From: Candidatus Tayloriibacteriota bacterium
Lineage (GTDB): Bacteria; Patescibacteriota; Minisyncoccia; Phycocordibacterales; PALSA-1337
DNA: 64,000 nucleotides
Reading direction: 5' to 3'
NCBI GenBank assembly: GCA_016215455.1
Contig: JACRJP010000002.1
Coordinates: 151,622-215,621, forward strand
Below are positions 44,671 to 59,850 of the stretch, in pieces; positions within the stretch are counted from its first letter, which is position 1; every line of letters begins with the position of its first letter. The notes under the pieces are model-generated. The model was given only the letters and a program-made list of their open reading frames with translations, had not been told where the DNA came from and did not search any database. Made by a program: the position numbers and the translations under genes.

Positions 44671-46344
44671 ATGATTAGTGATCTTACACCAACACAATTT
44701 AATGACCTCGCCGAGATTCTCTTTCCTGATGTTAAAGAAGGAGTTGATGCATACGAAGCAAAATTTCCTGAAAGAAATATCGATGGTGCTCCAGTAACTC
44801 GATTTTGTCCAAGTCCAACAGGTGTAATGCACATTGGTGGAGTTTTTGCTGCACTTATTTCAGATCGTATAGCGCACGCACATCCAAAAGGTGTATTTTA
44901 TTTGCGCATAGAAGATACTGATCAGGGACGAAAAATAGAAGAAGCATACGATGGAATCTATTCTGCAATGCGAAGTTTTGATGTACAGGTCAATGAAGGA
45001 ATTGATGGAAAGGGGAGCTATGGTCCGTACGTGCAATCAGAAAGACTTGATATCTATCGAGCCTTTACTAAAGAGTTGGTTCGATTAGGTCATGCATATC
45101 CATGTTTTTCTACTCCTGAAGAACTTGATGAAATTCGTAAGAAACAAGAGGCTCTTAAACTTCGACCAGGATATTATGGAACATGGGCAGTTGGTCGAAA
45201 GAATTCTTTTGCTGATATTACAAAAAATATTTCTGAAAAAAAGCCGTACGTTATTCGACTTCTTTCACGTGGTTCAGATAAGAATCAGAGAAAGTATAAT
45301 GATCTCATTAAGGGCGAAATTACGGTAACTGAAAATGATCAGGACAGTGTTCTCATTAAGTCTGACGGTTTTCCTACGTATCACTTAGCACATGTTGTTG
45401 ATGATCATTTAATGAAGACGACACTTGTGTTGCGAGGGGATGAATGGGTATCTTCACTTCCACTTCATCTTGAGCTCTTTGCGGCATTCGGTTGGAGTGT
45501 TCCTTCGTATGCGCATATTGCACCAATCTTAAAGCAAGATGGAGTTGGACGACGTAAACTTAGTAAGAGAAAAGATCCTGAAGCAGCAGTGAGTTACTAT
45601 GTTGATCAGGGGTACCCTACAGATGCTGTAATTGAGTATCTTCTTAATATCGCAAATTCTGACTTTGAACCATGGAGAGCTGCAAATCTCATATTGCCAA
45701 ATTCTAAGTTTCCTTTACGTCTTGAAAAGATGAGTAAGAGTGGAGCGTTGTTTGATCTCAAGAAACTTGATGATGTGAGTAAAAATATTGTTGGTCGAAT
45801 GAGTGCTGATGAAGTCTATCAACATGTTCGAGTATGGTCACAAACTCGTGATACAGAACTACATGATCTTTTTGGTAAAGATGAGGTATATACACGTGCG
45901 GTACTTAACATTGAAAGAGGTGGAACAACGACTCGTAAAGATATTGGAAAATGGAACGATGTTCGTGAAGCAGTTGGATATTTCTTTGATGATGTATATG
46001 CTGATCTAAAAAGTAAGCTTGATATAGCTACAACTCTTCCTGCGAGCGTAACAGTCGAACAGTGTAAAGCTTTATTATCTGAATACGCGGGAGTGTATGA
46101 TGCAAACCTTGATAAAGTTACTTGGTTTGAAAAATTAAAAGAATTTGCCGGAGCTCACGGGTTTGCGAAGGATACAAAAGAGTTTAAGGCTGATCCGAGT
46201 AAGTTTAAGGGGTCAGTAGGGGATATTGCAATGCTACTTCGACTTGCTCTGACAACAAAGACAAAAACGCCTGATCTTCATGAAACAATGAAGGTTATGG
46301 GTGTTGATCGAGTCAGTGCACGTCTCAAAGGGTTTATTGCGTAA
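44671..46344 (+). CDS. gltX: Glutamyl-tRNA synthetase
   Basis: RFCPSPTGVMHIGG (HIGH) and KLSKRK (KMSKS). 557 aa. Confidence 0.85.
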   Translation: MISDLTPTQFNDLAEILFPDVKEGVDAYEAKFPERNIDGAPVTRFCPSPTGVMHIGGVFAALISDRIAHAHPKGVFYLRIEDTDQGRKIEEAYDGIYSAMRSFDVQVNEGIDGKGSYGPYVQSERLDIYRAFTKELVRLGHAYPCFSTPEELDEIRKKQEALKLRPGYYGTWAVGRKNSFADITKNISEKKPYVIRLLSRGSDKNQRKYNDLIKGEITVTENDQDSVLIKSDGFPTYHLAHVVDDHLMKTTLVLRGDEWVSSLPLHLELFAAFGWSVPSYAHIAPILKQDGVGRRKLSKRKDPEAAVSYYVDQGYPTDAVIEYLLNIANSDFEPWRAANLILPNSKFPLRLEKMSKSGALFDLKKLDDVSKNIVGRMSADEVYQHVRVWSQTRDTELHDLFGKDEVYTRAVLNIERGGTTTRKDIGKWNDVREAVGYFFDDVYADLKSKLDIATTLPASVTVEQCKALLSEYAGVYDANLDKVTWFEKLKEFAGAHGFAKDTKEFKADPSKFKGSVGDIAMLLRLALTTKTKTPDLHETMKVMGVDRVSARLKGFIA

Positions 46345-46358
46345 AAGTTACATTCACG

Positions 46359-48077
46359 ATGAAAAAGATTATCCAAGAACATATTGAAAAAGCCCTTACA
46401 AAACTCGGTGCAACCGATGTGAGTTTTGTGGTTGAACATCCCGCTGATCTCGCTCATGGTGATTTTGCTACAAATGTCGCTTTATCTGCTGCAAAAAAAC
46501 TTGGCAAAAAGCCGCGCGAAGTCGCTGATCTTATTGTTGCAGAACTTACTGTTTCATTACCTGTTGGTGTGTCTGAAAAGGTAATAGCAATTGAAATTGC
46601 TGGTCCTGGTTTTATTAATTTCCGTTGCAGTGTTTCAGTATTTGTTACTGACCTAACTCGAATTATTTCAGAAAACAAGATGTATGGAAGTGTTGTCGAA
46701 CGCAAAGGACAGAAAGTGATGGTTGAATTTACCGACCCGAATCCTTTCAAGATTTTCCATATTGGACACCTCATGTCGAATACTATTGGTGAAGCAATTG
46801 CACGCATAATGGAATCATCAGGTGCAGAAGTTGTTCGTGCATGTTACCAAGGAGATGTCGGACTTCATGTAGCTCGAACTATGTGGGGTATTTTGCAGAA
46901 TAAGGATAAGTTTCCAAAAGAATCGGTATCACTTGTTGATCGAATTAAGTTTCTTGGAGATATGTATGTAATCGGTGCAAATATCGAAACTCCTGAAGCA
47001 CTTGCAGAAATTGCTGTGCTTAATAAAAAGATTTTTGAGAAAAGTGATTCAGAAATTAACGAGTATTACACTAAAGGCCGAACCTGGAGTCTTGAGTATT
47101 TTGAGACAATATACAAAAAACTTGGTACAAAGTTTGTCCACTACTTCTTCGAAAGCGAAGTGGCTGATGAGGGGGTACGTATTGTACGAGAATTTTTAAA
47201 GAAAGATATATTTGAAGAAAGTGATGGGGCTATTGTTTTTAAAGGTGAAGAATTTGGTCTTCATACACGTGTTTTCATTAACTCTCAAGGGTTACCTACC
47301 TATGAAGCGAAGGAAATTGGTTTGAACAAGAGAAAGTTTGAAGTGGAACCAACTCTTACCGAATCGATTATCATCACAGCTAATGAACAATCTGACTATT
47401 TTAAGGTGTTACTAAAAGTTTTTTCTCTTGTGTATCCAGAGATTGCTGCGAAGACAAAACATTTCAGTCACGGTATGCTCCGTTTTGCTTCAGGCAAAAT
47501 GTCTTCACGAAAGGGAAATATCATTGCAGCTGAAACTCTTATTACTGATGTAGAGAATTTAGTCCTTGAGAAAATAAAAGATCGTGGATTTGATGCAGAG
47601 GTTACTCAGCAGATTGCGTATGATGTTGCTGCTGCTGCGATTAAGTATTCAATTCTTCGACAGTCTGTCGGAGGTGATATTATCTACGATGTTGCAACCT
47701 CAGTTTCATTCGAAGGGGATTCAGGTCCTTACTTACAATATTCATGTGTCCGAGCTCGATCTGTTGTCGGGAAAGCACAGGAAATTGGAATCAAACCTGT
47801 GATTGATCTACAAGTACGGGAGGTTTCACCTCTTGAAAAGATGATGGTTCGTTACCCAGAAATTCTCGAACGAGCTCGTACTGAGTATGCTCCACACTAC
47901 ATTGTGACGTATCTTACTGAACTCGCATCAGCTTTTAATGCATATTACGCGGAGAATAAGATTATTGATGCAACAGACACTACTTCAGCACATAAAGTTG
48001 CTGTCACTCAGGCTTTTGCTCAAATAATGGAAAATGGTCTCTTGGTTATTGGTATTCGAGTACCAGCGAAGATGTAG
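46359..48077 (+). CDS. argS: Arginyl-tRNA synthetase
   Basis: HIGH-region FTDPNPFKIFHIGHLMSNTIG. C-terminal anticodon-binding DALR-like domain. 572 aa. Confidence 0.85.
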   Translation: MKKIIQEHIEKALTKLGATDVSFVVEHPADLAHGDFATNVALSAAKKLGKKPREVADLIVAELTVSLPVGVSEKVIAIEIAGPGFINFRCSVSVFVTDLTRIISENKMYGSVVERKGQKVMVEFTDPNPFKIFHIGHLMSNTIGEAIARIMESSGAEVVRACYQGDVGLHVARTMWGILQNKDKFPKESVSLVDRIKFLGDMYVIGANIETPEALAEIAVLNKKIFEKSDSEINEYYTKGRTWSLEYFETIYKKLGTKFVHYFFESEVADEGVRIVREFLKKDIFEESDGAIVFKGEEFGLHTRVFINSQGLPTYEAKEIGLNKRKFEVEPTLTESIIITANEQSDYFKVLLKVFSLVYPEIAAKTKHFSHGMLRFASGKMSSRKGNIIAAETLITDVENLVLEKIKDRGFDAEVTQQIAYDVAAAAIKYSILRQSVGGDIIYDVATSVSFEGDSGPYLQYSCVRARSVVGKAQEIGIKPVIDLQVREVSPLEKMMVRYPEILERARTEYAPHYIVTYLTELASAFNAYYAENKIIDATDTTSAHKVAVTQAFAQIMENGLLVIGIRVPAKM

Positions 48078-48290
48078 TCATTACCCCCCTTGATTATTTT
48101 CTAGGGAAGCATATACTCTTGGATAGATTGCACTTAGGTCGCAAATCGTGTCTCCTACCACCTCAACGGGGGGTTTTGGGTGAGCCTCCCTTGCTGGTGG
48201 ATGAGTTTCAAGAAGTCTGGGAAAGACCATTCCCAAAAGTATGCGTGTTGGCAACATACGCTACACTTCACGAACTCACACGTTTTGTGG

Positions 48291-48348
48291 GCCGGGCCGG
48301 CTTCGCTCCATTCCTCCCCGAAGCCGGCCTATCTTTATTTAATTTTTT
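48291..48348 (+). terminator. Strong rho-independent terminator about 215 nt downstream of argS
   Basis: GGCCGGCTTCG-13 nt loop-CGAAGCCGGCC, then TATCTTTATTTAATTTTTT. Confidence 0.7.
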
Positions 48349-48531
48349 CGAGTAAAACTGTTTCTTGTCCAAACTATCTCAGTTTGCTATACTCACAGGG
48401 TGAACAGAGCGATTTCCATTTCAGGTATTTCAATTATCAACCACTAATAAAAGTGGGGTCTCGCTCATATCTCCGTAACAAAAATTTAGATACGAGCCAG
48501 GCCCTGAAAAGGGCCTGCGCCATGTATATTT

Positions 48532-51500
48532 ATGTCTGATACACTACAACAACCCGCAGAAGGAGGTACTTCTCCTGAGAAAACAGAACACGCTCTACGT
48601 GAAGAGAGGGTACTTAACTTTTGGAATGTTCAAGGAATTTTCCAAAAATCTCTCAAAAAAGATTCTCCGAAAGGTGAGTTTGTATTTTACGATGGTCCTC
48701 CTTTTGCTACAGGTACTCCTCACTACGGACATATTCTTGCTGGAACAATTAAAGATGTCATTCCGCGTTATAAGACAATGCAAGGGTATCATGTTCCTCG
48801 TCGTTGGGGTTGGGATTGTCACGGTCTTCCTCTCGAAAATCTTATTGAAAAAGAACTTAATCTTGCATCAAAAAAAGATATTGAAATTCTTGGTGTAGGT
48901 AAATTTAATGAAGCTGCACGAAATGCAGTGCTTCGCTATGCTCATGTGTGGAAAGAGCAGGTGCCTCGATTGGGACGTTGGGTAGACATGGAAAATGACT
49001 ATCGAACAATGGATGCGTCATATACCGAGTCTGTTTGGTGGGTGTTTCAGAATCTGTATAACAAGGGACTTATTTATGAAAGTTTTAAGTCGATGCACCT
49101 CTGTCCTCGTTGTGGTACGACACTGTCAAATTTTGAAGTAAATCAAGGATATAAAGACATCACTGATATTTCAGTGTATGTAAAATTTGAAATTCTTGGT
49201 GAAAAAAATACATATCTCCTCGCGTGGACGACAACACCATGGACATTACCAGGTAACGTTGCTCTTGCTGTTGGAAGTGATATTGAATATGTCAAAATAA
49301 AAATAGGGGAGGCTGTATACATTCTTGCAAAAGATCGACTCTCTGTTGTAAAAGAAAACTATGAAATAGTGTCAGAGTTAAAAGGTAGTGAACTTGTTGG
49401 TAAAAAATACAAACCTGTATTTGAGTACTATTCCAATGATACAAAATTAGAAAATCGTCAGAATGGTTGGAAGGTATATGCTGCGCCATTTGTTACCACA
49501 ACAGACGGTACTGGAATTGTTCATATAGCTCCAGCGTACGGTGCTGATGACTATGATTTGTCTCAAAAAGAAAAGACCCCATTCATTCAACATGTTGGTG
49601 TTGATGGAAAATTTAAAAAAGAAGTTACAGATTTTGCAGGTCTTACTGCCAAGCCAAAAGGGGAGAAGGATGAGAAAGATCCTCACCAAAAAAGTGATAT
49701 TGAGGTCATCAAGTATCTTGCTGCAAAGAATGTGCTTTTTGCAAAAGAAAAAATAGTTCACTCGTACCCACATTGTTGGAGATGTGAAACTCCACTTTTG
49801 AATTACGCTACGTCTTCATGGTTCGTAAAGGTAACCGATTTCAAAGATAAACTTGTTAAGGCAAATAAAAAAGTAGGTTGGACACCATCACTTGTTGGAG
49901 AAAATCGTTTTGGAAAATGGCTTGAAGGTGCGCGTGATTGGGCAATTTCACGTTCTCGATATTGGGGAGCTCCAATTCCTGTGTGGAAGTCAGAAGATGG
50001 TAAAGAGGTATTTGTACCGTGTTCTGTTGCTGATATGCGAGCACGAGGCAAACGAACAACAAATTTCTTTCTTATGCGTCACGGTGAGACCGAGTATAAT
50101 CAGAAAGGCTTAATAAGTCCTGAGAAAGATATACCAGATCATCTTACTATCGATGGTCGAGAGCAGGTGAAGGTTTCAGCTGATAGACTTAAATCTCACC
50201 TCGGTTCATCAAATATTGACGTCATCGTTGCATCTCCTTTTGTGAGAACACGTGAGACGGTTACTATTGTTTCTGAAATACTTGGTGTACCACGATCTGC
50301 AATCATATTTGATGATCGACTAGGTGAAGTACATGCAGATGCTTTCAAAGGCCGTCCATGGAAAGAGTATCTTAATTTGTTTAAGGATCGTGATGAAGCA
50401 TATGTCAAAAATATTGATGGAGTTGAAAACCTTTCTCATGTTCGTGCTCGGGTTGGGGAAGTGTTATATGAACTCAATACTAAATTTGCAGGAAAGAATG
50501 TGCTCATTGTAAGTCATGGCACACCACTCAAAAATATTCTTGCAGTATCTCTTGGTAAAAATACCGATGCATCAATACCAATGTTTGATAATGCAGAAGT
50601 ACGGAAACTTGATTTTGTTCCACTTCCACATAATGAAAAATACGAACTTGATTTTCATCGACCGTTTATCGATGATGTCACTTTTTTGGATTCACGAGGT
50701 GGTGTCATGCGCCGTGTCCCCGATGTCTTTGATTGTTGGTTTGAATCAGGTTCAATGCCATATGGTGAAGCGCATTATATGGGCCGACCAGTAGCCACAT
50801 TTGATCCTAAGGGAGGATTGTTGAGAAGTAAAAAAGGTTTTCCTGCTGATTTTATCGCCGAAGGACTCGATCAGACACGAGGTTGGTTCTATTCAATGAT
50901 GGTGCTCGGTGTCGCTCTCTTTGGAAAAAGCCCTTACAAACACGTCATTGTTAATGGTCTTATTCTCGCTGAAGATGGACGCAAGATGTCAAAGAGTTTA
51001 AAAAACTTTCCAGATCCAATGGATGTGGTAGGTAAGTACGGTATGGATGCTGTGCGATATTACCTTCTTTCATCTCAAGCTGTTGCAGGGGAAGATCTTT
51101 GTTTTAGTGAAAAAGGAGTTGATGATGTTGTTAAGAAAGTAATTAATCGTCTCAATAATGTTGTTTCTTTCTATGAGATGTACGCAAAGAATACCAAGAA
51201 TATTCTTCCTCACGCTAATTCGAAAAATATTCTCGATATATGGATCATTTCTCGTCTTAATGAAACTATTATGAAAGTGACCACAGGACTCGAAAACTAC
51301 GAACTCAATACAGCAATCCGTCCAGTATATGATTTCATTGAAGATCTTTCGGTGTGGTATCTCAGACGTTCACGAGATCGTTTTAAGTCTGATGATGTTG
51401 AAGATAAACAAGCGGCGCTCATTACGACTCAGTATGTACTTATCGAACTCTCAAAAATTATGGCACCTTTCATGCCGTTTCTTGCAGAGGATATGTACAG

Positions 51501-52083
51501 TCGGGTAAAAACTGACAGTATGCCAGAGAGTGTTCACCTTACCGTATGGCCAGTCGCTACAAAAATACATACTGATGTAATTGTTCGTATGCAAGAAGTT
51601 CGTAAATTAGTAACCCTCGGTCTCGAAGCTCGTACAAAAGCAAAGATAAATGTCCGTCAGCCACTTGCACGACTCATGGTAACTCCGAGTGATATTACTA
51701 AAAAGATTCTTGCTGAAGATGAACTTGTTGCACTGATTCGTGATGAGGTAAACGTAAAAGATGTGGTCGTTGATTCAGGTGTCACTGAAGGTGTTACACT
51801 CGATCTCAGTATCTCTGATGAGCTTAAAGAAGAGGGAACTGTACGTGAACTCATTCGTGCAATTCAAGATCTTCGTAAAGAAATTGGTTTAAATGTCGGT
51901 GATACAGCTACGTTGTCATATGAAGCAACAGGGACTATTGCAGATGTCATCTCAAAGAACGCAGCAGCTCTCATGAAGGCAACACAACTTACAAAGATCT
52001 CTCCGGTGACGTTCCCTCAAGAAAATTCAGCAAAAACAATTACTGTTGCTGATGCTGCGGTGAAGATTCTAATTTCTCGATAG
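48532..52083 (+). CDS. ileS: Isoleucyl-tRNA synthetase carrying an internal histidine-phosphatase-like domain insertion
   Basis: HIGH (PPFATGTPHYGH), GWDCHGLP, WAISRSRYWGAPIP, MRRVPDVFDCWFESGS and KMSKSLKN are all IleRS-specific. Between PIPVW and the FHRPFIDDV block lies about 200 aa with RHGE..R..SHG histidine-phosphatase motifs. 1183 aa. Confidence 0.85.
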   Translation: MSDTLQQPAEGGTSPEKTEHALREERVLNFWNVQGIFQKSLKKDSPKGEFVFYDGPPFATGTPHYGHILAGTIKDVIPRYKTMQGYHVPRRWGWDCHGLPLENLIEKELNLASKKDIEILGVGKFNEAARNAVLRYAHVWKEQVPRLGRWVDMENDYRTMDASYTESVWWVFQNLYNKGLIYESFKSMHLCPRCGTTLSNFEVNQGYKDITDISVYVKFEILGEKNTYLLAWTTTPWTLPGNVALAVGSDIEYVKIKIGEAVYILAKDRLSVVKENYEIVSELKGSELVGKKYKPVFEYYSNDTKLENRQNGWKVYAAPFVTTTDGTGIVHIAPAYGADDYDLSQKEKTPFIQHVGVDGKFKKEVTDFAGLTAKPKGEKDEKDPHQKSDIEVIKYLAAKNVLFAKEKIVHSYPHCWRCETPLLNYATSSWFVKVTDFKDKLVKANKKVGWTPSLVGENRFGKWLEGARDWAISRSRYWGAPIPVWKSEDGKEVFVPCSVADMRARGKRTTNFFLMRHGETEYNQKGLISPEKDIPDHLTIDGREQVKVSADRLKSHLGSSNIDVIVASPFVRTRETVTIVSEILGVPRSAIIFDDRLGEVHADAFKGRPWKEYLNLFKDRDEAYVKNIDGVENLSHVRARVGEVLYELNTKFAGKNVLIVSHGTPLKNILAVSLGKNTDASIPMFDNAEVRKLDFVPLPHNEKYELDFHRPFIDDVTFLDSRGGVMRRVPDVFDCWFESGSMPYGEAHYMGRPVATFDPKGGLLRSKKGFPADFIAEGLDQTRGWFYSMMVLGVALFGKSPYKHVIVNGLILAEDGRKMSKSLKNFPDPMDVVGKYGMDAVRYYLLSSQAVAGEDLCFSEKGVDDVVKKVINRLNNVVSFYEMYAKNTKNILPHANSKNILDIWIISRLNETIMKVTTGLENYELNTAIRPVYDFIEDLSVWYLRRSRDRFKSDDVEDKQAALITTQYVLIELSKIMAPFMPFLAEDMYSRVKTDSMPESVHLTVWPVATKIHTDVIVRMQEVRKLVTLGLEARTKAKINVRQPLARLMVTPSDITKKILAEDELVALIRDEVNVKDVVVDSGVTEGVTLDLSISDELKEEGTVRELIRAIQDLRKEIGLNVGDTATLSYEATGTIADVISKNAAALMKATQLTKISPVTFPQENSAKTITVADAAVKILISR

Positions 52084-52085
52084 GT

Positions 52086-52670
52086 ATGTATCATATTCAC
52101 CACACTCTTGGGGTGATTACACAAACAGTACCTCACGGAGAAGCAAATCGTCTCTACTCTATTCTCACTCAAGATTTGGGTCTTGTGCGGGTTCATGCTC
52201 AAGGGGTACGCCTCGGTAAGTCAAAACTCAAAAGTCATCTCGTTCCGTACGTTGTAAAAGAATTTTCTTTTGTACGGGGAAAAGAAATATGGCGTCTTAC
52301 GACGGTAAAAGAATCTTCTGAATATCCTCACCATATTACTGATGAAAAAGCACGAAAAGTGTATGCGAGAATCTTGGCAGCAATTACGCGTCTTGTTTCA
52401 GGCGAAGAACATCAACCGTCGATTTTCACGGTTGTGTCTGCGTGTTTGGTGTATTTGTCTCAGGAAACAACCTCGGAGGCTCTTGAGGCTGTAGAACTCA
52501 TTACGATGGTTCGTATCCTGTATGAACTTGGGTATATTGATAAGACTACGTACCTTACACCTATTCTTGAGACTACAACATTTACTCCAGATGAGATTAC
52601 TCAAGTACTCGCAGCTCGTACGACAATTACTCACGACATCAACACTGCTCTCAAAGCCAGTCAGTTGTAA
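52086..52670 (+). CDS. recO: DNA repair protein RecO (short)
   Basis: N-terminal OB-fold pattern GVITQTVPHGEANRLYSILTQDLGLVRVHAQGVRLGKSKL matches RecO. 194 aa. Moderate confidence. Confidence 0.5.
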   Translation: MYHIHHTLGVITQTVPHGEANRLYSILTQDLGLVRVHAQGVRLGKSKLKSHLVPYVVKEFSFVRGKEIWRLTTVKESSEYPHHITDEKARKVYARILAAITRLVSGEEHQPSIFTVVSACLVYLSQETTSEALEAVELITMVRILYELGYIDKTTYLTPILETTTFTPDEITQVLAARTTITHDINTALKASQL

Positions 52671-52689
52671 TGTGGTATACTGTTCCAAT

Positions 52690-54630
52690 ATGGTAGATCA
52701 AGGTGACCAGAGTAAAATCGAAGCCCTTAAAAAAGGTTTGTATTCTCGAAACGCCCCCGACGTGCGTCATAAACATCATGCTGGTCTTGAAGAAGATCAC
52801 TATGATGTAAAGACGGATTGGGAACACCCACAAGAACCAGTGGAGGAAGTTCGTTTAAACGAAGAATACGAAGATCATCACATGTCATTTTTCACGAAGC
52901 TTCTTATTGCCTCGGGTATATTTTTTGTACTTGCACTTGGTGTTGGTGCGTATCTTTTCTTTCAAGGAAGTAATATGGTTTCGGCAAACAATGTCGATAT
53001 CATGATCGAAGGTCCTGTATCAGTTTCTGGTGGGGAACCGTTAGGATTCCAAGTTCAGGTGTATAATAAAAATAATATTAAACTCGAACTCGTCGACCTT
53101 ACTGTAGAATTTCCTGCAGGCACAGCTGACCCTGATGATTCAACAAAAGAACTACGACGATTCCGTGAGTTTATGGATGATATTAATCCAGGGGGAGTTT
53201 CTCAAAAAACTGTTCGAGCAATCCTCTATGGTGAAGAAAATAGTCGTAAGCAGGTAAAGGTAAGAGTGGAATATCGAGTAAAAGGTTCGAATGCTATAAA
53301 TTATAAAGAAAAAGACTATGAGGTAGCGATTACTTCAGCACCTATCAATATATCCATTTCATCATTCAAAGAAGTAAATTCAGGTCAGGAATTTGAAATG
53401 GCAGTACAGGTAACCTCAAACTCTCAAGAGGTGCTTAAGAATATTTTGCTCAAGGCAGTGTATCCTTTTGGATATACATTCATTTCATCTGATGTGAAGC
53501 CGATATACGACAATGCAACATGGAAAATCGGCGATCTTCCTCCAAAAGGAAAGCGTACAATTAAGATCAAAGGTAGAATCGATGGTCAGGATGATGAAGA
53601 GCGTGTTATACGATTCGCACTCGGTGTGCAGAGTATTAAGAGTGACAAGATCATCGGCACTGAATTTGTTACTACTGCTCAAAATATTCTTGTTAAGAAA
53701 CCATTCTTGAGTACTGAAGTTGCTTTTGATGGAGATACGACGATTCAAGAATATGTCAGTCAGTTTAATAATCAGGTTCAGGTGGAGATTTCTTGGTTCA
53801 ACAACCTTCCGACTTCAGTTATTGATGGAGAAATTCGTGTAAAACTCTCAGGTAGTGCATTTGATAAGGCTTCAGTTAGTCCTGATCAAGGTTTCTATCG
53901 TTCTGCAGAGAATGAAATTGTATGGAATAAGATTACATCAAAGAGTCTTGCTTCAATCGGTGCAGGGGAAAGTGGTCGTGTCTCATTCCGTATCACACCA
54001 CGTAATTTGAGCACTCAAGCTCGACAGGTTATCAATCCAGATATTGGAATTGATGTCAGTGTAAAAGCAAATCGTGTTTCAGATGGATCGAATGTACCAC
54101 AAGTTATCGCTTCAACTGTTAAAAAGAAAATCAAAGTTGGTTCATCAGCATCTCTCGCATCACAAGTGTTGTATTCAACTGGGCCTCTTACAAATACCGG
54201 TCCATTTCCTCCAAAAGCCGAAACACCTACAACATTTACGGTTCTCTGGACTATCTATAACACTTCAAGTAATATTTCGAATGCAGAAGTTCGTTCTTCG
54301 TTACCGGCATATGTGAAGTGGGTTGATAAGGTGGCTCCATCTAATGAGAATATCGTTTATAACCCTGTAGACGGTAGTATTATATGGAAAGCCGGTAGTA
54401 TTGCAGCTAATACGGGTACAGATGCGAATAAGCGTCAGGTGGCATTCCAGATTTCTTTGACGCCGAGTGTAAGTCAGGTAGGGCAGTCGCCAGTTCTCAT
54501 TAACGAAGCGGTATTCAGTGCGATAGATCAATTTACAAACACTCAAATTGAAACAAATCTATCCGGGCAGACAACAGAACTTCAGGATGATTCTCGCTAT
54601 GCAGGTAATGGAGGTGCGGTACAACGATAA
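52690..54630 (+). CDS. Large membrane-anchored protein with extracytoplasmic beta-rich domain (hypothetical)
   Basis: First ATG at 52690 (MVDQGDQS..). Acidic/His-rich cytoplasmic N-terminus, one TM (LLIASGIFFVLALGVGAYLFF), then about 560 aa of S/T/V-rich repeats. The ORF-track start at 52522 overlaps recO and is unsupported. Confidence 0.45.
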   Translation: MVDQGDQSKIEALKKGLYSRNAPDVRHKHHAGLEEDHYDVKTDWEHPQEPVEEVRLNEEYEDHHMSFFTKLLIASGIFFVLALGVGAYLFFQGSNMVSANNVDIMIEGPVSVSGGEPLGFQVQVYNKNNIKLELVDLTVEFPAGTADPDDSTKELRRFREFMDDINPGGVSQKTVRAILYGEENSRKQVKVRVEYRVKGSNAINYKEKDYEVAITSAPINISISSFKEVNSGQEFEMAVQVTSNSQEVLKNILLKAVYPFGYTFISSDVKPIYDNATWKIGDLPPKGKRTIKIKGRIDGQDDEERVIRFALGVQSIKSDKIIGTEFVTTAQNILVKKPFLSTEVAFDGDTTIQEYVSQFNNQVQVEISWFNNLPTSVIDGEIRVKLSGSAFDKASVSPDQGFYRSAENEIVWNKITSKSLASIGAGESGRVSFRITPRNLSTQARQVINPDIGIDVSVKANRVSDGSNVPQVIASTVKKKIKVGSSASLASQVLYSTGPLTNTGPFPPKAETPTTFTVLWTIYNTSSNISNAEVRSSLPAYVKWVDKVAPSNENIVYNPVDGSIIWKAGSIAANTGTDANKRQVAFQISLTPSVSQVGQSPVLINEAVFSAIDQFTNTQIETNLSGQTTELQDDSRYAGNGGAVQR

Positions 54631-54647
54631 CGAACAAACTAACGATT

Positions 54648-56033
54648 ATGAAAAAAGAACGAAATGAATTGATGGAAGAAATAGTATCGCTCTCAAAGCG
54701 CCGTGGTTTTATCTACCAAGGTTCTGAAATTTATGGTGGTCTCGCTGGTACATGGGATTACGGTCCCTACGGTGTTGCTCTAAAAAACAACATTACATCT
54801 CTGTGGTGGAAGCGTTTTGTAGATGATCGAGATGATATGTATGGTGTCGATGCTGCTATTCTCATGCATCAGAACGTCTGGAAGGCGAGTGGACACGTTG
54901 GTGGTTTTGCTGATCCTCTTGTGACTGATGTGAAGACGAATAAGCGATATCGAGCAGACCATCTTCTTGAAGAAATGGGTGTTGATCCAAAAGGTATGAC
55001 ACTCGATAAAATGACTGAAGTCATTCGAGAGAAGAAGATCAAGAGTCCTGAAGGTAACGACGTTAGTGACGTACGTCAGTTTAATATGATGTTCAAGACA
55101 CATGTCGGTGCACTTGAAGATGATGCCTCTATTTCATATCTCCGTCCTGAAACAGCGCAGGGTCTCTTTGTGAACTTTAAAAATATTATTGATACCTTTC
55201 ATCCGAAACTTCCATTCGGTCTTGCTCAGATTGGTAAGGCATTTCGAAACGAGATTGCTCCTCGTGACTTCATCTTCCGTGTACGCGAACTTGAACAGAT
55301 GGAAATTGAATATTTTGTTCGTCCAACAGATTGGAAGGGAACATTTGAACATTTTCTTGCACAACAGAAAGAATTTTTGACAAAGGATCTTGGTCTAAAT
55401 ACATCAAAGATTCATGTCGTTGATATTCCTGAAGCTGATCGGGCACATTACTCAAAGCATAGTGTTGATCATGAATTTGATTTTCCATTTGGTCAGAAGG
55501 AATTGCTCGGTCTTGCATATCGAACAGATTTCGATCTCAAGCAACACACGGAACATAGTGGTACTGATCTTTCATACTATGATGAAGAAACAAAAGAGCG
55601 CTTTATTCCACATTGTATCGAGCCAACGTTTGGTGTTGGTCGTCTCATGCTCGCGGTGATCTCTGACGCATATACTGTTGATGAACTCGGTGGTGAAAAG
55701 CGCACCTATCTCAAATTTGCTCCAAGTGTTGCTCCGGTGAAAGTTGCAGTGTTTCCATTACTTAAGAATAAGCCACAGTTGATTGATAAGGCTCAGGAAG
55801 TATTTAAGATGCTCCGCAAAGAAATAAAAGGAGTTGTCTTTGATGATAATGGTAATATTGGTAAACGATATCGTCGACAAGATGAAATTGGTACACCATT
55901 TTGTGTAACTATCGACTTTGATACAGTAGAAAAACCAGAAGCTGAAGTAACTATCCGACATCGTGATACAGGAGAGCAGGAGAGAGTAAAGATTTCTGAT
56001 TTACTTACTTATATTAAGACGAAGATAGGTTAA
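54648..56033 (+). CDS. glyQS: Glycyl-tRNA synthetase (dimeric GlyQS type)
   Basis: LSKRRGFIYQGSEIYGGLAGTWDYGPYGVALKNN N-terminal block. Class II motifs. 461 aa. Confidence 0.85.
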   Translation: MKKERNELMEEIVSLSKRRGFIYQGSEIYGGLAGTWDYGPYGVALKNNITSLWWKRFVDDRDDMYGVDAAILMHQNVWKASGHVGGFADPLVTDVKTNKRYRADHLLEEMGVDPKGMTLDKMTEVIREKKIKSPEGNDVSDVRQFNMMFKTHVGALEDDASISYLRPETAQGLFVNFKNIIDTFHPKLPFGLAQIGKAFRNEIAPRDFIFRVRELEQMEIEYFVRPTDWKGTFEHFLAQQKEFLTKDLGLNTSKIHVVDIPEADRAHYSKHSVDHEFDFPFGQKELLGLAYRTDFDLKQHTEHSGTDLSYYDEETKERFIPHCIEPTFGVGRLMLAVISDAYTVDELGGEKRTYLKFAPSVAPVKVAVFPLLKNKPQLIDKAQEVFKMLRKEIKGVVFDDNGNIGKRYRRQDEIGTPFCVTIDFDTVEKPEAEVTIRHRDTGEQERVKISDLLTYIKTKIG

Positions 56034-57301
56034 TGAAAACAAATACAACAATACTCAAAAACGGTATACGACTCGTGACGATACCAATGGTTGATAATCC
56101 TGCCGTGACAGTACTTGTTATGGTGTCTGCTGGTTCAAAATATGAAGCAAAAGAGCTTGGTGGTATCTCACATTTTCTTGAACATATGGCGTTTAAGGGT
56201 ACGACACGACGTCCGTCACCACTTATTATCAGTACCGAACTTGATTCAATTGGTGCAGACTATAATGCATTCACTGGGCAGGAATATACGGGCTACTATG
56301 CAAAATCGAGCCCTGATCGATTAGAAATAATTGTTGATGTGCTTGCTGATATGTATATCAATCCTCTTTTTGATGAAAAGGAAATGGAGAAAGAGAAGGG
56401 GGTTATTGTTGAAGAACTACGAATGTATCGAGATCTTCCACAGCGGCATGTTCATAATGTGTTTATGCAATTGGTATACGGAGATCAACCTGCGGGTCGA
56501 GAGATCGGAGGAACAGAAGAAACTGTTAAAAGTTTTACGCGTGATCATTTTATAAAATATCGTGATCAGCACTATGTAGCAGAAGCAACTACGATCGTAG
56601 TGGCTGGTACATTTGATGAAACAAAAATTACTGAATTAATTTCAGATAAGTTTTCGATGATTCTGACGAATAAGAAAATGGATAAGGAAAAGGTGAATGA
56701 TACCCAAACAGAGCCAGCTCTCAGAATAGAGAAGCGACCGACCGATCAGACTCATCTTATTCTCGGTGTTCGGACGTATGGAGTGACTGATGCAAAAGTC
56801 CCAGTCCTTAAACTTATTTCCGGTGTTCTTGGTGCTGGGTTGAGTTCACGCCTCGTGCAAAAGCTTCGTGAAGAAATGGGTGTTTGTTATTACGTAAATG
56901 CTCACAATGATCTTTATACTGATCATGGATTGTTTACAATATCCGCTGGGGTTGATAAGCAACGATTACCCGAAGTTGTTCAAACTCTCATTGCTGAACT
57001 TAATCGACTCAAAAATGAACTCATATCTCCTGAAGAATTAAAAAAGACAAGGGATTATTTAAAAGGAACATTACAACTTGGACTTGAAACATCAGATTCA
57101 CGTGCTGAGTTTGCAGGGTATCAATATATTCTTAAGAATAAGTTTCAAACTCCAGATGAGATCACTCAAGCTCTTGAAGCAGTAACTCCTGAAATGATTC
57201 GTGATGTAGCACGTGATATTTTTGTTACCGAACATCTTAATCTCGCAGTTATTGGAAATGTCGAAGACGAGAAGAAAATCAAGGCCCTGCTTAATTTTTA
57301 A
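56033..57301 (+). CDS. M16-family zinc peptidase (insulinase-like)
   Basis: HFLEHMAFKGT inverted zinc motif (HxxEH). 422 aa. Confidence 0.75.
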   Translation: MKTNTTILKNGIRLVTIPMVDNPAVTVLVMVSAGSKYEAKELGGISHFLEHMAFKGTTRRPSPLIISTELDSIGADYNAFTGQEYTGYYAKSSPDRLEIIVDVLADMYINPLFDEKEMEKEKGVIVEELRMYRDLPQRHVHNVFMQLVYGDQPAGREIGGTEETVKSFTRDHFIKYRDQHYVAEATTIVVAGTFDETKITELISDKFSMILTNKKMDKEKVNDTQTEPALRIEKRPTDQTHLILGVRTYGVTDAKVPVLKLISGVLGAGLSSRLVQKLREEMGVCYYVNAHNDLYTDHGLFTISAGVDKQRLPEVVQTLIAELNRLKNELISPEELKKTRDYLKGTLQLGLETSDSRAEFAGYQYILKNKFQTPDEITQALEAVTPEMIRDVARDIFVTEHLNLAVIGNVEDEKKIKALLNF

Positions 57302-57328
57302 GACATTCGGTGCTATGATGGGGGAGTT

Positions 57329-58399
57329 ATGAACGAAGGTAAAAGCTATACTATTTCGATCACTTCTGGAAGCCTAATTCGAGGTTTTCTTGTAATTATC
57401 CTGTTTCTAGGCCTGTTTTATATCAAAGACATTGTCTTGGTAATGCTTGCAGCTGTTGTGGTGGCTTCTTCCATTGAACCTGCAACAAAATGGTTTGCAC
57501 GTCATAAAGTGCGTCGATTACCTGCGGTCATTCTCATTTACGGAATTCTCGTCCTTCTTCTTGCCGGATTCTTCCTATTCTTTGTTCCGTCACTTCTCAA
57601 CGAAACAATAACGTATCTCAACAATCTTCCTCAGAATATTAGTATTAACGATCTATGGAGTCCGATAAGTGACAGTGGATTGTTCGGTAATACATCAGCG
57701 GTTAATTCTTTGACCCAGCACACATTTTCGATTAGAGAGGTTGTGAGTGCACTTCGAGAGGTTATTTCTGGAACAAGTGAAGGTGCATTCAAAACAGCAA
57801 GTGTACTTTTCGGTGGAGCATTGAGTCTTGTTCTTATTGTCGTACTTTCTTTCTATCTCGCGGTGCAAGAGGATGGGGTGGGGAATTTTTTACGAATTAT
57901 TACTCCAGTTAAGAATCATGATTACATCATTGATTTGTGGAAGCGTTCTCAACTCAAGATTGGATATTGGATGCAAGGCCAGTTACTCTTGGCGGTGATT
58001 ATTGGTCTTCTTGTGTATCTTATTCTCATGATTATTGGTATTCAACATGCGTTGCTTCTTGCAACCATCGCTGCATTATTTGAGCTTATTCCGGTTTTTG
58101 GTCCAATTCTTTCAGCAATTCCTGCTATTGTTATTGCGATGGGAGACAAGGGTCTTACATCAGCGATTATTGTAACAGCTGGGTATCTTATTATTCATCA
58201 GTTTGAAAATCATTTGTTGTATCCACTTGTAGTGCGTAAGATTGTTGGAGTATCACCAATTCTTGTTATTCTTGCTTTGGTGGTTGGTTTCAAACTCGCT
58301 GGATTCCTGGGAGCCATTCTTGCAGTTCCAATGGCTGCGGTTCTCATGGAATATGTAAATGATATTGAAAAGAGTAAGGCGCAGAAAATTCTACAGTAA
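57329..58399 (+). CDS. AI-2E/UPF0118 family transporter-like membrane protein
   Basis: 356 aa with about 8 TM helices in the arrangement typical of PerM/YdiK-type proteins. Family call tentative. Confidence 0.45.
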   Translation: MNEGKSYTISITSGSLIRGFLVIILFLGLFYIKDIVLVMLAAVVVASSIEPATKWFARHKVRRLPAVILIYGILVLLLAGFFLFFVPSLLNETITYLNNLPQNISINDLWSPISDSGLFGNTSAVNSLTQHTFSIREVVSALREVISGTSEGAFKTASVLFGGALSLVLIVVLSFYLAVQEDGVGNFLRIITPVKNHDYIIDLWKRSQLKIGYWMQGQLLLAVIIGLLVYLILMIIGIQHALLLATIAALFELIPVFGPILSAIPAIVIAMGDKGLTSAIIVTAGYLIIHQFENHLLYPLVVRKIVGVSPILVILALVVGFKLAGFLGAILAVPMAAVLMEYVNDIEKSKAQKILQ

Positions 58400-58410
58400 A
58401 CCTAACCGAT

Positions 58411-59850
58411 ATGTCAGTAAAAAATTTCTACATTACAACAACGCTTCCATATGTGAACTCAGATCCTCACATTGGTTTTGCTATGGAAATTATTCGAGCA
58501 GATGCAATTGCACGATTTCATAAACTACAAGGTGATAACGTGTTCTTTAATACAGGAACCGATGAGCATGGTCTCAAAATTTACCAAAAAGCCTTTAATC
58601 TTGGTCAGAATACCCAGGATTTTGTTGATGGCTATGCAGAGGCTTTCAAGAATCTAAAAGGAATTCTCAATCTCAGCGAAGACCTTCATTTTGTTCGAAC
58701 AACTGACTCGAGACACGTTGAGGCTGCACAAGAATTCTGGAAGCGCTGCAATGATAATGGATATATTTACAAGAAGCTATATCAAGCAAAGTATTGCTCA
58801 GGTTGTGAACTAGAAAAGACTGATGTTGAAATAGAGAATGGACACTGTTTCATCCATCCGAATATTGACCTTATTCTTATTGATGAAGAAAATTACTTTT
58901 TCAAATTCTCTGAATTTCAGAAACCTCTCCTTGAATTTTATGCGAAGCATCCGGATTTTGTTGTTCCAGATTTTCGTTTCAATGAAATAAAAGCTTTTGT
59001 CGAGCGAGGTCTCCAAGATTTTAGTATCTCTCGATTGAAGAGTAAGATGCCGTGGGGAGTGCCTGTACCAGGAGATGATGGTCATGTGATGTATGTATGG
59101 TTCGATGCTCTCGTGAGCTATATTTCAACACTAGGATGGCCAAAGGATACTGCATCATTTGAACAGTGGTGGGTTTCTACTGGTGGTGTAGTCCAGTATT
59201 GTGGTAAGGATAATCTTCGTCAGCAATCAGCGATGTGGCAAGCAATGCTCATGGCTGCAGGGCTACCTAATTCTAAGCAGATTGTTATCAATGGTTTCAT
59301 TACAAGTGGGGGACAGAAGATGTCGAAGAGTCTTGGAAATGTTGTCAGTCCTATTGATATCGTTAATGAATTTGGTACAGATGCTTTGCGTTACTATGTA
59401 CTTCGCGAGTTTTCTCCATTTGAAGACAGTGATTTTACACTTGAAAAGTTTAAGGAGTCATACAATGCAGGTTTAGCAAACGGTCTTGGGAATCTCGTGA
59501 GTCGAGTTATGAAAATGGCAACGACATATGATGTTCGATTGCCTGATGTTGCTTTGGTGGTTGATGAAGAAAAATACACAAAGGCGTTTGAAAGTTTTGA
59601 GATAAATAAAGCATGTCAGTATATTTGGAGTCTCATTCAAGATGCTGATCGTCTCATTCAAGAAACTGAACCATTCAAACTCATCAAAACTGATCCAGAA
59701 AAGGCAAAGAAGATTGTGGGGGATTTATTGAGTCGGATAAACTTCATTGCCGTAGTACTTCGACCTATCCTTCCAGAAACATCAAAAATAGTTGAGGAAT
59801 GTGTTACATCACACACAATGCCTGAGAAGCCTCTTTTCTTGAGAAAGTGA
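58411..59850 (+). CDS. metG: Methionyl-tRNA synthetase (short form)
   Basis: YITTTLPYVNSDPHIGF (HIGH-like), Cys-containing insertion CSGCELE.., KMSKSLGN. 479 aa. Confidence 0.85.
   Translation: MSVKNFYITTTLPYVNSDPHIGFAMEIIRADAIARFHKLQGDNVFFNTGTDEHGLKIYQKAFNLGQNTQDFVDGYAEAFKNLKGILNLSEDLHFVRTTDSRHVEAAQEFWKRCNDNGYIYKKLYQAKYCSGCELEKTDVEIENGHCFIHPNIDLILIDEENYFFKFSEFQKPLLEFYAKHPDFVVPDFRFNEIKAFVERGLQDFSISRLKSKMPWGVPVPGDDGHVMYVWFDALVSYISTLGWPKDTASFEQWWVSTGGVVQYCGKDNLRQQSAMWQAMLMAAGLPNSKQIVINGFITSGGQKMSKSLGNVVSPIDIVNEFGTDALRYYVLREFSPFEDSDFTLEKFKESYNAGLANGLGNLVSRVMKMATTYDVRLPDVALVVDEEKYTKAFESFEINKACQYIWSLIQDADRLIQETEPFKLIKTDPEKAKKIVGDLLSRINFIAVVLRPILPETSKIVEECVTSHTMPEKPLFLRK

Follow-up and report, generated by a model that had tools for sequence, protein, structure and literature searches.

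The DNA analysed, from a tiny bacterium of the groundwater type, is a window of 64,000 nucleotides, the term being used for the whole stretch. Its aminoacyl-tRNA synthetase (aaRS) cluster has the order gltX-argS-ileS-recO-...-class II aaRS-...-metG, and the isoleucyl-tRNA synthetase (IleRS) encoded by ileS carries a histidine-phosphatase (HP) domain within it. The features of the locus are as follows.

46359..48077, + strand: argS (ArgRS, 572 aa), upstream neighbour; in relatives a free-standing HP gene lies directly downstream of it
48078..48531, + strand: argS-ileS spacer, 454 nt; the position of the free-standing HP gene in relatives
48532..52083, + strand: ileS, 1183-aa type-2 (eukaryote-like) IleRS with insert (profile, alignment, AF2, Foldseek)
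48532..50043, + strand: IleRS N-terminal part, aa 1-504; Rossmann first half, CP1 editing domain, CP2 and CP3 first half
50044..50643, + strand: inserted HP domain, aa 505-704, 200 aa (Pfam, NCBIfam, alignment, phmmer, AF2, Foldseek)
50068-50616, + strand: Pfam His_Phos_1 (PF00300) core, aa 513-695
50077..50085, + strand: RHG motif, R516-H517-G518, with H517 the predicted phospho-acceptor nucleophile; invariant in 120/120
50245..50247, + strand: R572 (in SPFVRTRET), second phosphate-binding Arg; invariant in 120/120
50326..50328, + strand: E599 (in RLGEV), predicted general acid/base; invariant in 120/120
50515..50517, + strand: H662 (in VSHG), second conserved His of the phosphate pocket; invariant in 120/120
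50620..50634, + strand: P-L-P-H-N linker, aa 697-701, leading the chain back to CP3; almost invariant in 120 insert-bearing homologues
50644..52083, + strand: IleRS C-terminal part, aa 705-1183; CP3 remainder, Rossmann second half, anticodon-binding domain and C-terminal DUF5915 domain
52086..52670, + strand: recO, downstream neighbour, completing the argS-(HP)-ileS-recO synteny

The ileS product is identical to MBI5126372.1 from a Candidatus Taylorbacteria MAG. It scores 885.9 bits on the NCBIfam ileS model TIGR00392 (curated equivalog cut-off 621.4 bits), in two stretches that flank the insert, and aligns with Priestia megaterium IleRS2 (8c8u) at E=6e-214. The AF2 model of the full-length protein has a pLDDT of 88.7 and a pTM of 0.79, with 90-98 for the insert blocks; its comparison with IleRS structures by Foldseek gave TM values of 0.79-0.86. 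A preliminary description of this DNA had called the ORF one unbroken frame with its IleRS motifs intact, and the frame is indeed continuous with every cited motif at the expected codons. HYGH, the class I HIGH motif (aa 64-67, 48721-48732), and the CP1 editing motifs TTTPWT (aa 233-238, 49228-49245) and GTGIVH (aa 326-331, 49507-49524) are invariant in 120 homologues. WAISRSRYWGAPIP lies at 49939-49980, also at the expected codons, and the N-terminal part stops just past WAISRSRYWGAPIPVW. Beyond the insert, DFHRPFID is found in the CP3 remainder (50650-50673), and CWFESGS and KMSKS (aa 818-822, 50983-50997) in the Rossmann second half; KMSKS too is conserved in the 120 homologues. Subdomain names are those of PMC7191050. 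No second ileS was found within the 64-kb window, where only MetRS gave matches, and weak ones. The gene is predicted from its sequence to be the cell's working type-2 IleRS.

The inserted histidine-phosphatase domain

PF00300 matched the IleRS at E=1.5e-30 and 106.8 bits (111.4 bits for the excised insert; profile positions 2-181 of 194), the gathering threshold being 21.7 bits, and the match interrupts tRNA-synt_1 at profile position 265 of 414. When the protein was aligned with 8c8u, residue 504 corresponded to residue 476 and residue 705 to residue 485; about 200 residues thus replace a loop of about 8. In Ca IleRS, CP3 comprises residues 473-534 (PMC7191050), and residue 505 of the query pairs with Ca 498, that is, inside CP3. 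The insertion occurs at the tip of this subdomain, where the Rossmann-fold catalytic domain formerly had its Zn knuckle. In this IleRS and its clade CP3 has lost its Zn-ligand cysteines, yet the IleRS of L005 retains CxxC...CxxC and bears the insert. GC content and skew over the insert are unremarkable. When the insert was modelled in isolation by AF2, an alpha/beta PGAM-like fold was obtained (pLDDT 87.6, pTM 0.87), and in this model it is shown as an autonomous HP fold. The preliminary description had placed the insert at 50040-50650, in agreement with the limits from the 8c8u alignment; two of the checks it had proposed, a PF00300 search and a structure prediction, gave the strong match and the independently folding domain described above.

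The insert carries the full branch-1 HP signature that had been claimed for it, with the RHG motif, the second Arg and the second His all present. Nine residues (R516, H517, G518, N523, R572, E599, E632, R640 and H662) are invariant in the 120 nearest homologues, and the catalytic set aligns to the catalytic residues of PspA, E599 falling on its conserved Glu. The histidine-phosphatase superfamily uses a conserved Glu as proton donor. The preliminary description had given this role to the SHG His; the predicted donor is E599, which it had not listed, and H662, present and conserved, is the second His that binds phosphate. Tandem, other-site and free-standing copies of the domain likewise retain the catalytic residues. 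Over the 120 homologues the insert is only 49% pairwise identical, versus 69% for the host, and its divergence tracks that of the host (r=0.87). Comparison of these sequences shows strict purifying selection on every catalytic residue, and shows that the insert was passed down vertically with its host across a large clade of Patescibacteria. It is a complete HP domain and, judged by its sequence, probably active.

The nearest structures to the insert in Foldseek were PspA (4ij5/4ij6), PhoE (1h2e), 9mmh, CobC (6e4b) and TIGAR. Short HPs matched with E of about 1e-13 and TM of about 0.75, and PspA, PhoE and CobC were found with a probability of 1.00; phmmer matched the insert to PspA at E=9e-9. 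The insert has the cap region typical of small-molecule HPs, and the HP domains are mildly acidic (median pI about 6). None of the best NCBIfam models (RNase H/acid phosphatase, archaeal dPGM, CobC and PspA) reached its cut-off; with 56-61 bits on the model of CobC, the alpha-ribazole phosphatase (cut-off 162.9), and 45-49 on that of PspA, a phosphoserine phosphatase (cut-off 350), the resemblance to CobC and PspA holds at the subfamily level only.

Other identities were considered and rejected. A glycolytic dPGM does not fit the scores (dPGM_arch 63.9-68.3 against 225, pgm_1 26.1 against 81.7, GpmB 42-47 against 261), and the ERHYG motif is absent from the insert. The SixA model TIGR00249 gave 47.2-53.8 bits against a cut-off of 74.5, in its N-terminal half only (model positions 2-76 of 154). 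The domain is PhoE/PspA/CobC-like, not SixA- or dPGM-like, which corrects the PGAM/SixA-like label first given to it. The same description had excluded an intein, correctly: no intein or Hint family was found in Pfam at E<=0.01, the insert begins with R505, and after the conserved H700-N701 comes E, D or K, not Cys, Ser or Thr; this pair belongs to the linker that is missing from free-standing homologues. It had also considered an assembly chimera, whereas no fewer than 120 independent assemblies have the same architecture, and the insert diverges in step with its host. A catalytically dead replacement of the Zn knuckle disagrees with the invariant catalytic residues and with L005, in which CxxC...CxxC and the insert occur together.

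Distribution and free-standing relatives

PF00300 was present in 120/120 of the closest IleRS homologues (55-80% identity, Patescibacteria MAGs), and clustering of insert-bearing IleRSs at 50% identity gives about 100 clusters or more; the insert is common to hundreds of related Patescibacteria. The preliminary description had called the insert unusual, and among aaRSs it is, but within Patescibacteria it is ordinary. The ground for refutation named there, an insert common and already annotated in IleRS of the lineage, applies by half. The alignment of related IleRSs which that description had proposed places the insert clade-wide in Patescibacteria rather than in this genome alone. The architecture, common as it is in the lineage, is annotated by generic names only. 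Precomputed Pfam tables list the PF00133+PF00300 combination, and the databases name these proteins 'class I tRNA ligase family protein' or 'isoleucyl-tRNA synthetase' and nothing else, the former being the NCBI label although the proteins clearly pass the ileS model. A full-text literature search found no description of an IleRS or other aaRS with a histidine-phosphatase domain. When a word-index search was run with the insert alone, 19 free-standing HPs at <=37% identity were returned and all IleRS inserts, including that of the query protein itself, were missed; such a search is therefore of no use as evidence of rarity, and exhaustive phmmer was used instead. A single-sequence scan of genome contigs gave 14 loci, which serve as examples and not as a census.

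The domain was found at three or more sites in IleRS, and ileS is by far its main host among the top 150 representatives. It lies between the catalytic and anticodon-binding domains in L007 and P0235, and after WFESGSMP in P0235 and P0255; tandem double copies are present in P0244, P0223 and P0280. A ValRS with four HP copies (P0175) is a doubtful single example, from a contig of about 2x coverage with an in-frame TAA in the fourth copy. In L007 an IS200-like transposase domain is present in-frame inside CP1. Patescibacteria TsaC is fused to Ogt, TruB, 2H-CPDase, Nudix, MPG, GNAT or HP, the HP taking the same C-terminal slot as the 2H cyclic-phosphodiesterase domains; since TsaC is joined to so many unrelated domains, the TsaC-HP fusion is weakened as a link to tRNA.

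In related genomes, HP homologues of about 190 aa are encoded by free-standing genes, with 33-40% identity over about 160-200 aligned residues, and these proteins stop short of the PLPHN linker. In seven independent contexts argS was directly upstream in 6/7, and an insert-less ileS was directly adjacent, likewise in 6/7. The usual order in these relatives is argS-HP-ileS-recO, matching the synteny of the query. At L017 the locus reads argS-HP-ileS(984 aa)-recO, and this ileS scores 688.6 on TIGR00392 in one uninterrupted stretch. The HP-ileS adjacency holds without argS in L027 and spans two very different IleRS types, in co-directional and convergent arrangements; it is absent for six non-Patescibacteria HPs at about 30% identity. 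The insert-bearing loci L001-L004 and L006 are arranged argS-ileS(+HP)-recO, and no separate HP gene was found at them. In the window no phosphatase remnant was detected at E<=10, in the argS-ileS spacer or elsewhere. The spacer contains a 12-bp GC hairpin followed by a U tract (about 48294-48348) and a promoter-like site (48365-48393). Rfam models run on the window and the spacer matched only tRNAs and, below threshold, CcsR1 (24.6 against 65.3 bits), and hence no T-box or other leader.

These data strongly support the descent of the insert from a free-standing HP gene of about 190 aa beside an insert-less ileS, and equally the loss of that gene from the query lineage, where the domain now lies within ileS. 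An NJ tree of 165 HP domains is star-like and carries no support values, so that insertion events cannot be counted nor the family rooted from it; in its coarse groups the other-site copies of L007 and P0235 pair, and the first and second tandem copies separate. The direction from gene to insert is accordingly inferred by parsimony and not from a rooted, supported tree. Both states, the gene beside ileS and the domain inside it, are thus preserved in one syntenic block together with alternative sites, a testable natural experiment on the origin of domain insertions.

Possible roles of the phosphatase

On balance we favour, with moderate confidence, an active phosphomonoesterase of the small-molecule type, once encoded by the adjacent gene, that was transferred into ileS and is partnered with IleRS. 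H517 would attack a phosphate held by R516, N523, R572 and H662, E599 would protonate the leaving group, and water would then free the phosphate. The IleRS moiety would aminoacylate and edit as normal, and the tether would provide 1:1 co-expression and co-localisation with IleRS, the chemistry of which would be unaltered. By analogy with its closest relatives, which are small-molecule phosphatases of about 200 aa, and in view of its mildly acidic character, the domain is most likely to hydrolyse a small phosphomonoester and not to bind RNA or protein on its own. A ribose- or nucleotide-linked phosphate tied to aminoacylation is a tentative choice of substrate class, and a 2'/3'-phosphorylated nucleotide or tRNA end would be an alternative. 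The roles suggested in the preliminary description (action on a nucleotide or a tRNA 3'-phosphate, or antibiotic resistance) are speculative, and the closest structures are those of small-molecule phosphatases. AMP is the sole phosphomonoester product of aminoacylation; its loss would be wasteful for an organism having to salvage nucleotides, which counts against this reading.

In a bolder reading, possible but rather doubtful at present, class Ia synthetases of Patescibacteria would possess in the HP a third catalytic site: an accessory enzyme that evolved as a partner of IleRS, at first as its operon neighbour, and was then repeatedly captured into different surface loops, in tandem copies and possibly in ValRS. 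Its target would be a phosphorylated ligand from the aminoacylation cycle. It might clear AMP or another nucleotide by-product, or heal 2'/3'-phosphorylated tRNA ends. If true, this would add a novel activity to those associated with aaRSs, and would rank among the few documented cases in which a gene was transplanted into the interior of its neighbour. Few known enzymes are as conserved as the aminoacyl-tRNA synthetases, whose accessory domains are mostly terminal additions and largely non-catalytic. Here, throughout a large and uncultivated radiation of bacteria, a second, complete enzyme is embedded in the Rossmann-fold catalytic domain of an essential synthetase. Neighbourhood and fusion together provide a strong guilt-by-association lead to a phosphatase function linked to translation in organisms of minimal metabolism.

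A simpler explanation, which we regard as a serious though lesser possibility, is a neutral or economy fusion, in which an ordinary housekeeping phosphatase, mechanistically unconnected with aminoacylation, was taken up by the gene next to it, in a surface loop that tolerates insertion, and kept only for its own activity. The window region is an aaRS cluster, so the adjacency of HP and ileS could be historical. The many TsaC fusions and the transposase domain of L007 mark Patescibacteria as prone to fusion, so that fusion alone is weak evidence of mechanistic coupling; the use of at least three loops with varying copy number also speaks against the HP being coupled to the IleRS active site in a fixed geometry. 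The generic small-molecule phosphatases that are its closest relatives also suit such a fusion. It accounts less well for an adjacency kept over two IleRS types, in both orientations and without argS (L027), and missing in non-Patescibacteria relatives, or for three or more entry sites in IleRS with ileS the dominant host.

Healing of tRNA ends in cis, in which damaged, IleRS-bound tRNA(Ile) would lose a 2'- or 3'-phosphate so as to be aminoacylated at A76, appears unlikely. The hosts and neighbours of the domain are tRNA enzymes (IleRS, ArgRS, TsaC and possibly ValRS), it shares the TsaC slot with 2H cyclic-phosphodiesterase domains, its top NCBIfam model is an RNase H/acid-phosphatase fusion, and a vicinal 2'/3'-phosphoribose resembles 2-/3-phosphoglycerate, by analogy only. 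However, action on RNA ends is not known to us for any branch-1 HP. The mildly acidic character of the domains, a variable insertion position and metabolite phosphatases as structural neighbours also speak against healing, and a need for it mostly in IleRS has no evident reason.

Still less probable is a protein phosphatase that undoes an inhibitory phosphorylation of the synthetase. The toxin kinases HipA and HipT phosphorylate a KMSKS-loop Ser of GltX and TrpS, the adjoining ArgRS also has a Ser-containing KMSKS-like loop, and the superfamily includes the protein phosphatases SixA, PGAM5 and Sts-1. Against this stand the partial, sub-cut-off SixA match, the small-molecule-HP cap and metabolite-phosphatase neighbours, a partial survey of the window in which no kinase was seen, and the TsaC fusion, which would be left unexplained. 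Lastly, a reading of the insert as artefactual, selfish or inert (chimera, intein, dead Zn-knuckle replacement or glycolytic dPGM), to which the loss of the CP3 Zn-ligand cysteines and the second rank of archaeal dPGM among the NCBIfam models might point, is in practice refuted by the recurrence, the invariant residues, the lack of a Hint family and the dPGM scores.

Comparison with known systems

The IleRS2 of P. megaterium (8c8u) and the IleRS of Thermus thermophilus (1ile) are of the same family and fold as the query and share with it the HIGH, KMSKS and CP1 editing motifs, the anticodon-binding domain and the C-terminal domain. They differ in CP3, where both have a loop of about 8 residues and the query a 200-aa enzyme domain, and in the Zn-ligand cysteines, present in both but lost from the query. 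The free-standing HPs of L017 (P0283) and L027 (P0211) belong to the same subfamily, with the same catalytic set and argS-ileS-recO neighbourhood. Such Patescibacteria HPs are, however, separate genes of 188-196 aa whose products end directly past the last beta-strand, without PLPHN, and the ileS beside them lacks the insert, whereas the query ileS contains it.

PspA (4ij5), PhoE/YhfR (1h2e), CobC (6e4b) and the riboflavin-pathway HFP (9mmh) are branch-1 enzymes of about 200 aa. The insert shares all their catalytic residues, the alpha/beta fold and the small cap, but it is only 20-26% identical to them, falls under every curated equivalog cut-off and is embedded in another enzyme. The bifunctional RNase H/acid phosphatase of the Rv2228c type (NF005567) likewise joins an HP to a nucleic-acid enzyme and is the top NCBIfam model for the insert, at 79-83 bits, far under its cut-off of 326; there the HP is a terminal fusion to a different partner enzyme, in contrast to the internal insertion in ileS. 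A precedent for an IleRS with an extra enzyme domain is NF040702, 'isoleucine--tRNA ligase, N-acetyltransferase domain-containing'. Its extra domain is a GNAT and not an HP, the query scores 336 against its cut-off of 1999, and the unmatched part of the profile, about 275-456, is the CP1 region, whereas the HP of the query lies in CP3.

A histidine phosphatase within the IleRS of the window

Host gene and insert in the window:
48532..52083, forward strand: ileS, one unbroken 1183-aa frame (ORF listing)
50044-50643, forward strand: phosphatase insert, aa 505-704 (alignment to 8c8u)

The window gene was assigned as isoleucine--tRNA ligase by NCBIfam TIGR00392 (885.9 bits against a curated cut-off of 621.4), the match falling in two stretches. 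Pfam splits its tRNA-synt_1 domain at profile position 265/414 and places there a branch-1 histidine-phosphatase domain (HP; His_Phos_1, PF00300, aa 513-695, E=1.5e-30, 106.8 bits against a cut-off of 21.7), followed by Anticodon_1 and DUF5915. The complete, uninterrupted frame and the phosphatase domain of the preliminary description are thus borne out, and the coordinates it gave, 50040-50650, agree with the aligned insert. Among PDB sequences (phmmer), the protein groups with type-2 (eukaryote-like) IleRSs, the top match being Priestia megaterium IleRS2 (8c8u, E=6e-214). The full-length AlphaFold2 model, built on an alignment of 120 homologues, has a pLDDT of 88.7 and a pTM of 0.79. Superposed on IleRS structures, its host part gives TM of 0.79-0.86, and the insert is its most confident region (90-98 per 10-residue block).

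The identical protein, MBI5126372.1, is encoded on a 245-kb contig of a Candidatus Taylorbacteria MAG (within the Parcubacteria group of Patescibacteria) and is named "class I tRNA ligase family protein". It and several homologues bear only this NCBI label despite the ileS equivalog score (885.9 vs 621.4 bits); automated naming was presumably disturbed by the HP insert.

In the phmmer alignment to 8c8u, query residues 504 and 705 pair with residues 476 and 485, so that ~200 residues stand in place of a loop of ~8 residues. Residue 505 aligns to residue 498 of Candida albicans IleRS (phmmer), in which the CP3 subdomain spans residues 473-534 (PMC7191050); the insertion is therefore within CP3, a part of the Rossmann-fold catalytic domain. 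Thermus IleRS has a zinc-binding motif in the equivalent of CP3 (PMC7191050), and in P. megaterium IleRS2 a CxxC...CxC knuckle flanks the equivalent of the insertion site. The knuckle cysteines are lost in the window IleRS and close relatives. They are kept around the insert in a more divergent IleRS at locus L005 (VWTCEHCKH...insert...GCPKCS). Thus, HP occupies the tip of what was once the Zn knuckle, and its insertion did not depend on prior loss of the zinc site. GC content and skew are unremarkable over the insert. An intein, dismissed already in the preliminary description, is rejected: the Pfam scan of the window IleRS gave no intein family, and the residues at the junctions do not resemble those of inteins.

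In a sequence search of the PDB, the excised insert hits short histidine phosphatases, PspA and PhoE among them. Modelled alone (AlphaFold2; pLDDT 87.6, pTM 0.87), it is predicted to take up a fold of its own. The closest structures are PspA (4ij5/4ij6), PhoE (1h2e), a riboflavin-pathway HFP (9mmh), mycobacterial hydrolases, CobC and TIGAR, every one of them a ~200-aa small-molecule phosphomonoesterase. Identity as dPGM, SixA, CobC, PspA or RNase H/acid phosphatase was rejected, the insert falling far below every curated equivalog cut-off (NCBIfam); it is a superfamily member outside any characterised family. R516, H517, G518, N523, R572, E599, E632, R640 and H662 are invariant in the alignment of the best 120 homologues. 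The domain is established as a complete HP fold under selection for catalysis. Taken singly, host and guest are ordinary, one a type-2 IleRS and the other a short branch-1 HP; the unusual part is their combination.

Inheritance of the insert and its partnership with ileS

In a whole-protein search, PF00133 and PF00300 occurred together in all of the best 120 homologues (55-80% identical, 1104-1244 aa, labelled Taylorbacteria, Paceibacterota or Patescibacteria). Among these, mean pairwise identity is 49% for the insert vs 69% for the host, and the divergence of the two is correlated (r=0.87). This pattern marks a single old insertion that was passed on vertically under purifying selection on catalysis. 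An assembly chimera, a concern raised earlier, and a decaying passenger are excluded by the invariant catalytic residues and the co-divergence of insert and host in the homologues. The suggestion that the arrangement is rare holds across aminoacyl-tRNA synthetases (aaRSs) generally and fails within Patescibacteria. The window IleRS is one among hundreds; its architecture is a common one in the lineage and, though unnamed, can be seen in precomputed Pfam tables.

The insert was searched exhaustively with phmmer against 1.84 billion representatives, which gave 537 proteins at E<=1e-10. The top 150 were mapped with three parts of the window IleRS, namely those on either side of the insert and the insert itself. 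The majority of these 150 were IleRSs or IleRS fragments with HP at the CP3 site, and ~35 were genuine free-standing HPs (160-215 aa, with a Met start and an end just past the last beta-strand). A word-index protein search with a 228-aa insert query retrieved neither the protein from which the query came nor any IleRS insert, though both were in the collection; its negatives for short domain queries are therefore not to be trusted. Genomic context was informative for seven free-standing HP representatives.

Gene order at free-standing HP genes in relatives (genomic loci)
L015: argS, HP, ileS
L016: argS, HP, ileS
L017 (and L018-L020): argS, HP (195 aa), ileS (984 aa, without insert), recO
L021: argS, HP, convergent with insert-less ileS
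L022: argS, HP, convergent with insert-less ileS
L026: argS, HP
L027 (and L028): HP, ileS (972 aa), recO, without argS

argS is directly upstream of HP in six of the seven contexts, and an insert-less ileS directly adjoins it in six of seven. At L017, 1 nt separates the HP stop from the ileS start, and this ileS matches TIGR00392 as one unbroken stretch. HPs of other phyla (n=6, ~30% identity) were in no case next to argS or ileS. By gene neighbourhood and recurrent fusion, HP is established as a genetic partner of ileS. Free-standing HP genes adjoin a second, very different IleRS type (L015:2029-2301, L016:1248-1502, L027:8575-11493) as well as the 'GPPFATGxPHYGH' type, to which the window IleRS belongs. 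The linkage therefore spans two IleRS lineages.

Genes around ileS in the window:
44671-46344, same strand as ArgRS, IleRS and recO: GluRS/GlnRS-type aaRS
46359-48077, forward strand: argS
52086-52670, forward strand: recO
52522-54630, same strand, after recO: DUF11 surface-type protein
54648-56033, same strand: class II aaRS with HGTP anticodon domain
between the class II aaRS and MetRS, same strand: M16 peptidase, then AI-2E transporter
58411-59850, same strand: MetRS

The window shares argS, ileS and recO in this order with relatives, and insert-bearing loci L001-L004 and L006 (GTDB genomes) have argS-ileS(+HP)-recO with a single, internal HP copy. On the simplest reading, a free-standing phosphatase gene, already a partner of ileS, was relocated into it. 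The direction, from gene to insert, is inferred from parsimony, the NJ tree being too poorly resolved for rooting. No HP remnant was found in the window's 454-nt argS-ileS spacer.

For a dense genome, this spacer (48078-48531) is of unusual length, and its GC is elevated (0.44-0.48). Its features are a GC-rich hairpin of 12 bp with a U tract after it (about 48294-48348, -23.6 kcal/mol, z=-2.6), a promoter-like site (TTGTCC-17-TATACT, 48365-48393), a stem-loop just 5' of the ileS ATG and a sub-threshold CcsR1 match (24.6 vs 65.3 bits); a 119-aa GTG ORF (48180-48539) is probably spurious. Window 44671-59850 is an aaRS-rich cluster on one strand, and the order recO, DUF11-like, class II aaRS is found again at L027. 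As listed, the 702-aa DUF11 ORF shares 149 nt with recO (52522-52670); its true start is probably a downstream ATG.

Other sites, tandem copies and other hosts

In the Peribacteria IleRS at L007 (L007:2708-6952, MAG CAZQFO010000085.1, 1409-1415 aa), the Zn knuckle is intact and uninterrupted, and Pfam places HP at 856-1021, between the catalytic domain and Anticodon_1. The same protein has an in-frame IS200-like Y1 transposase domain within CP1, the editing domain (PF01797, E=6e-10, aa 293-369, HUH-like 'DHVHL'). Two HP copies are present in homologue P0235 (between the catalytic domain and Anticodon_1, and after WFESGSMP) and in P0255 (in CP3 and after WFESGSMP); in P0244, P0223 and P0280, the CP3 site holds two copies in tandem. 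Catalytic residues are kept in all these copies. The N- and C-terminal strands of HP presumably lie side by side, which would explain the ease with which it drops into loops.

In a ValRS-like ORF (P0175, L029:366-3947; valS models 380-410 bits), His_Phos_1 is present four times: one copy is mid-domain, and the other three follow, in tandem, a 'WWGHRIPVWY' block that corresponds by homology to the CP3 site of IleRS. The ORF may reflect an error or be a pseudogene, and is not relied on because its contig has ~2x coverage and the fourth copy is interrupted by an in-frame TAA. TsaC carries a C-terminal HP fusion in four clusters. In Patescibacteria, TsaC (L-threonylcarbamoyladenylate synthase) is a fusion hub (P0246, P0290-P0406), its C-terminal partners including Ogt-like PF01035 (commonest), TruB, 2H cyclic phosphodiesterase (PF07823/PF13563), Nudix, methylpurine glycosylase (MPG), GNAT and His_Phos_1.

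Proposed function and comparison with known systems

HP probably acts as a phospho-His phosphomonoesterase, in which H517 would be the nucleophile, R516, N523, R572 and H662 would form the phosphate pocket and E599 would be the acid. Its substrate is probably a small phosphomonoester. AMP is the sole phosphomonoester product of aminoacylation. As a guess, and a rather doubtful one, the substrate could be AMP; ribose-linked phosphates (CobC-like chemistry) come nearest as a chemical theme, and the alternative is a tRNA end with a 2'/3'-phosphate.

A serious rival, to which we give a fairly low probability, is that the fusion of HP with IleRS serves co-expression only. Insertion geometry and HP copy number vary, Patescibacteria genes are generally fusion-prone (TsaC with Ogt, TruB, 2H-CPDase, Nudix, MPG or GNAT), and a transposase domain has entered CP1 at L007. 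A stand-alone RNA- or protein-binding module is argued against by the metabolite-phosphatase structural neighbours and the mildly acidic median pI of HP domains (~6). Because the phosphatase exists both as a separate neighbour gene and as an internal domain, at several insertion sites, the evolutionary route and the function of the putative phosphomonoesterase are directly testable.

Full-text searches of the openly accessible literature turned up no account of a histidine-phosphatase domain in an aaRS. As a class, aaRSs with internal HP are undescribed; an apparently active second enzyme within the catalytic domain would surprise an aaRS specialist. Among NCBIfam models, NF040702 (IleRS with GNAT domain) resembles the window protein in having an extra domain on IleRS, and NF005567 (RNase H/acid-phosphatase fusion) is the best-scoring model for the insert. 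Both differ from it in the combination of domain and site, and the window protein scores below the cut-off of each.
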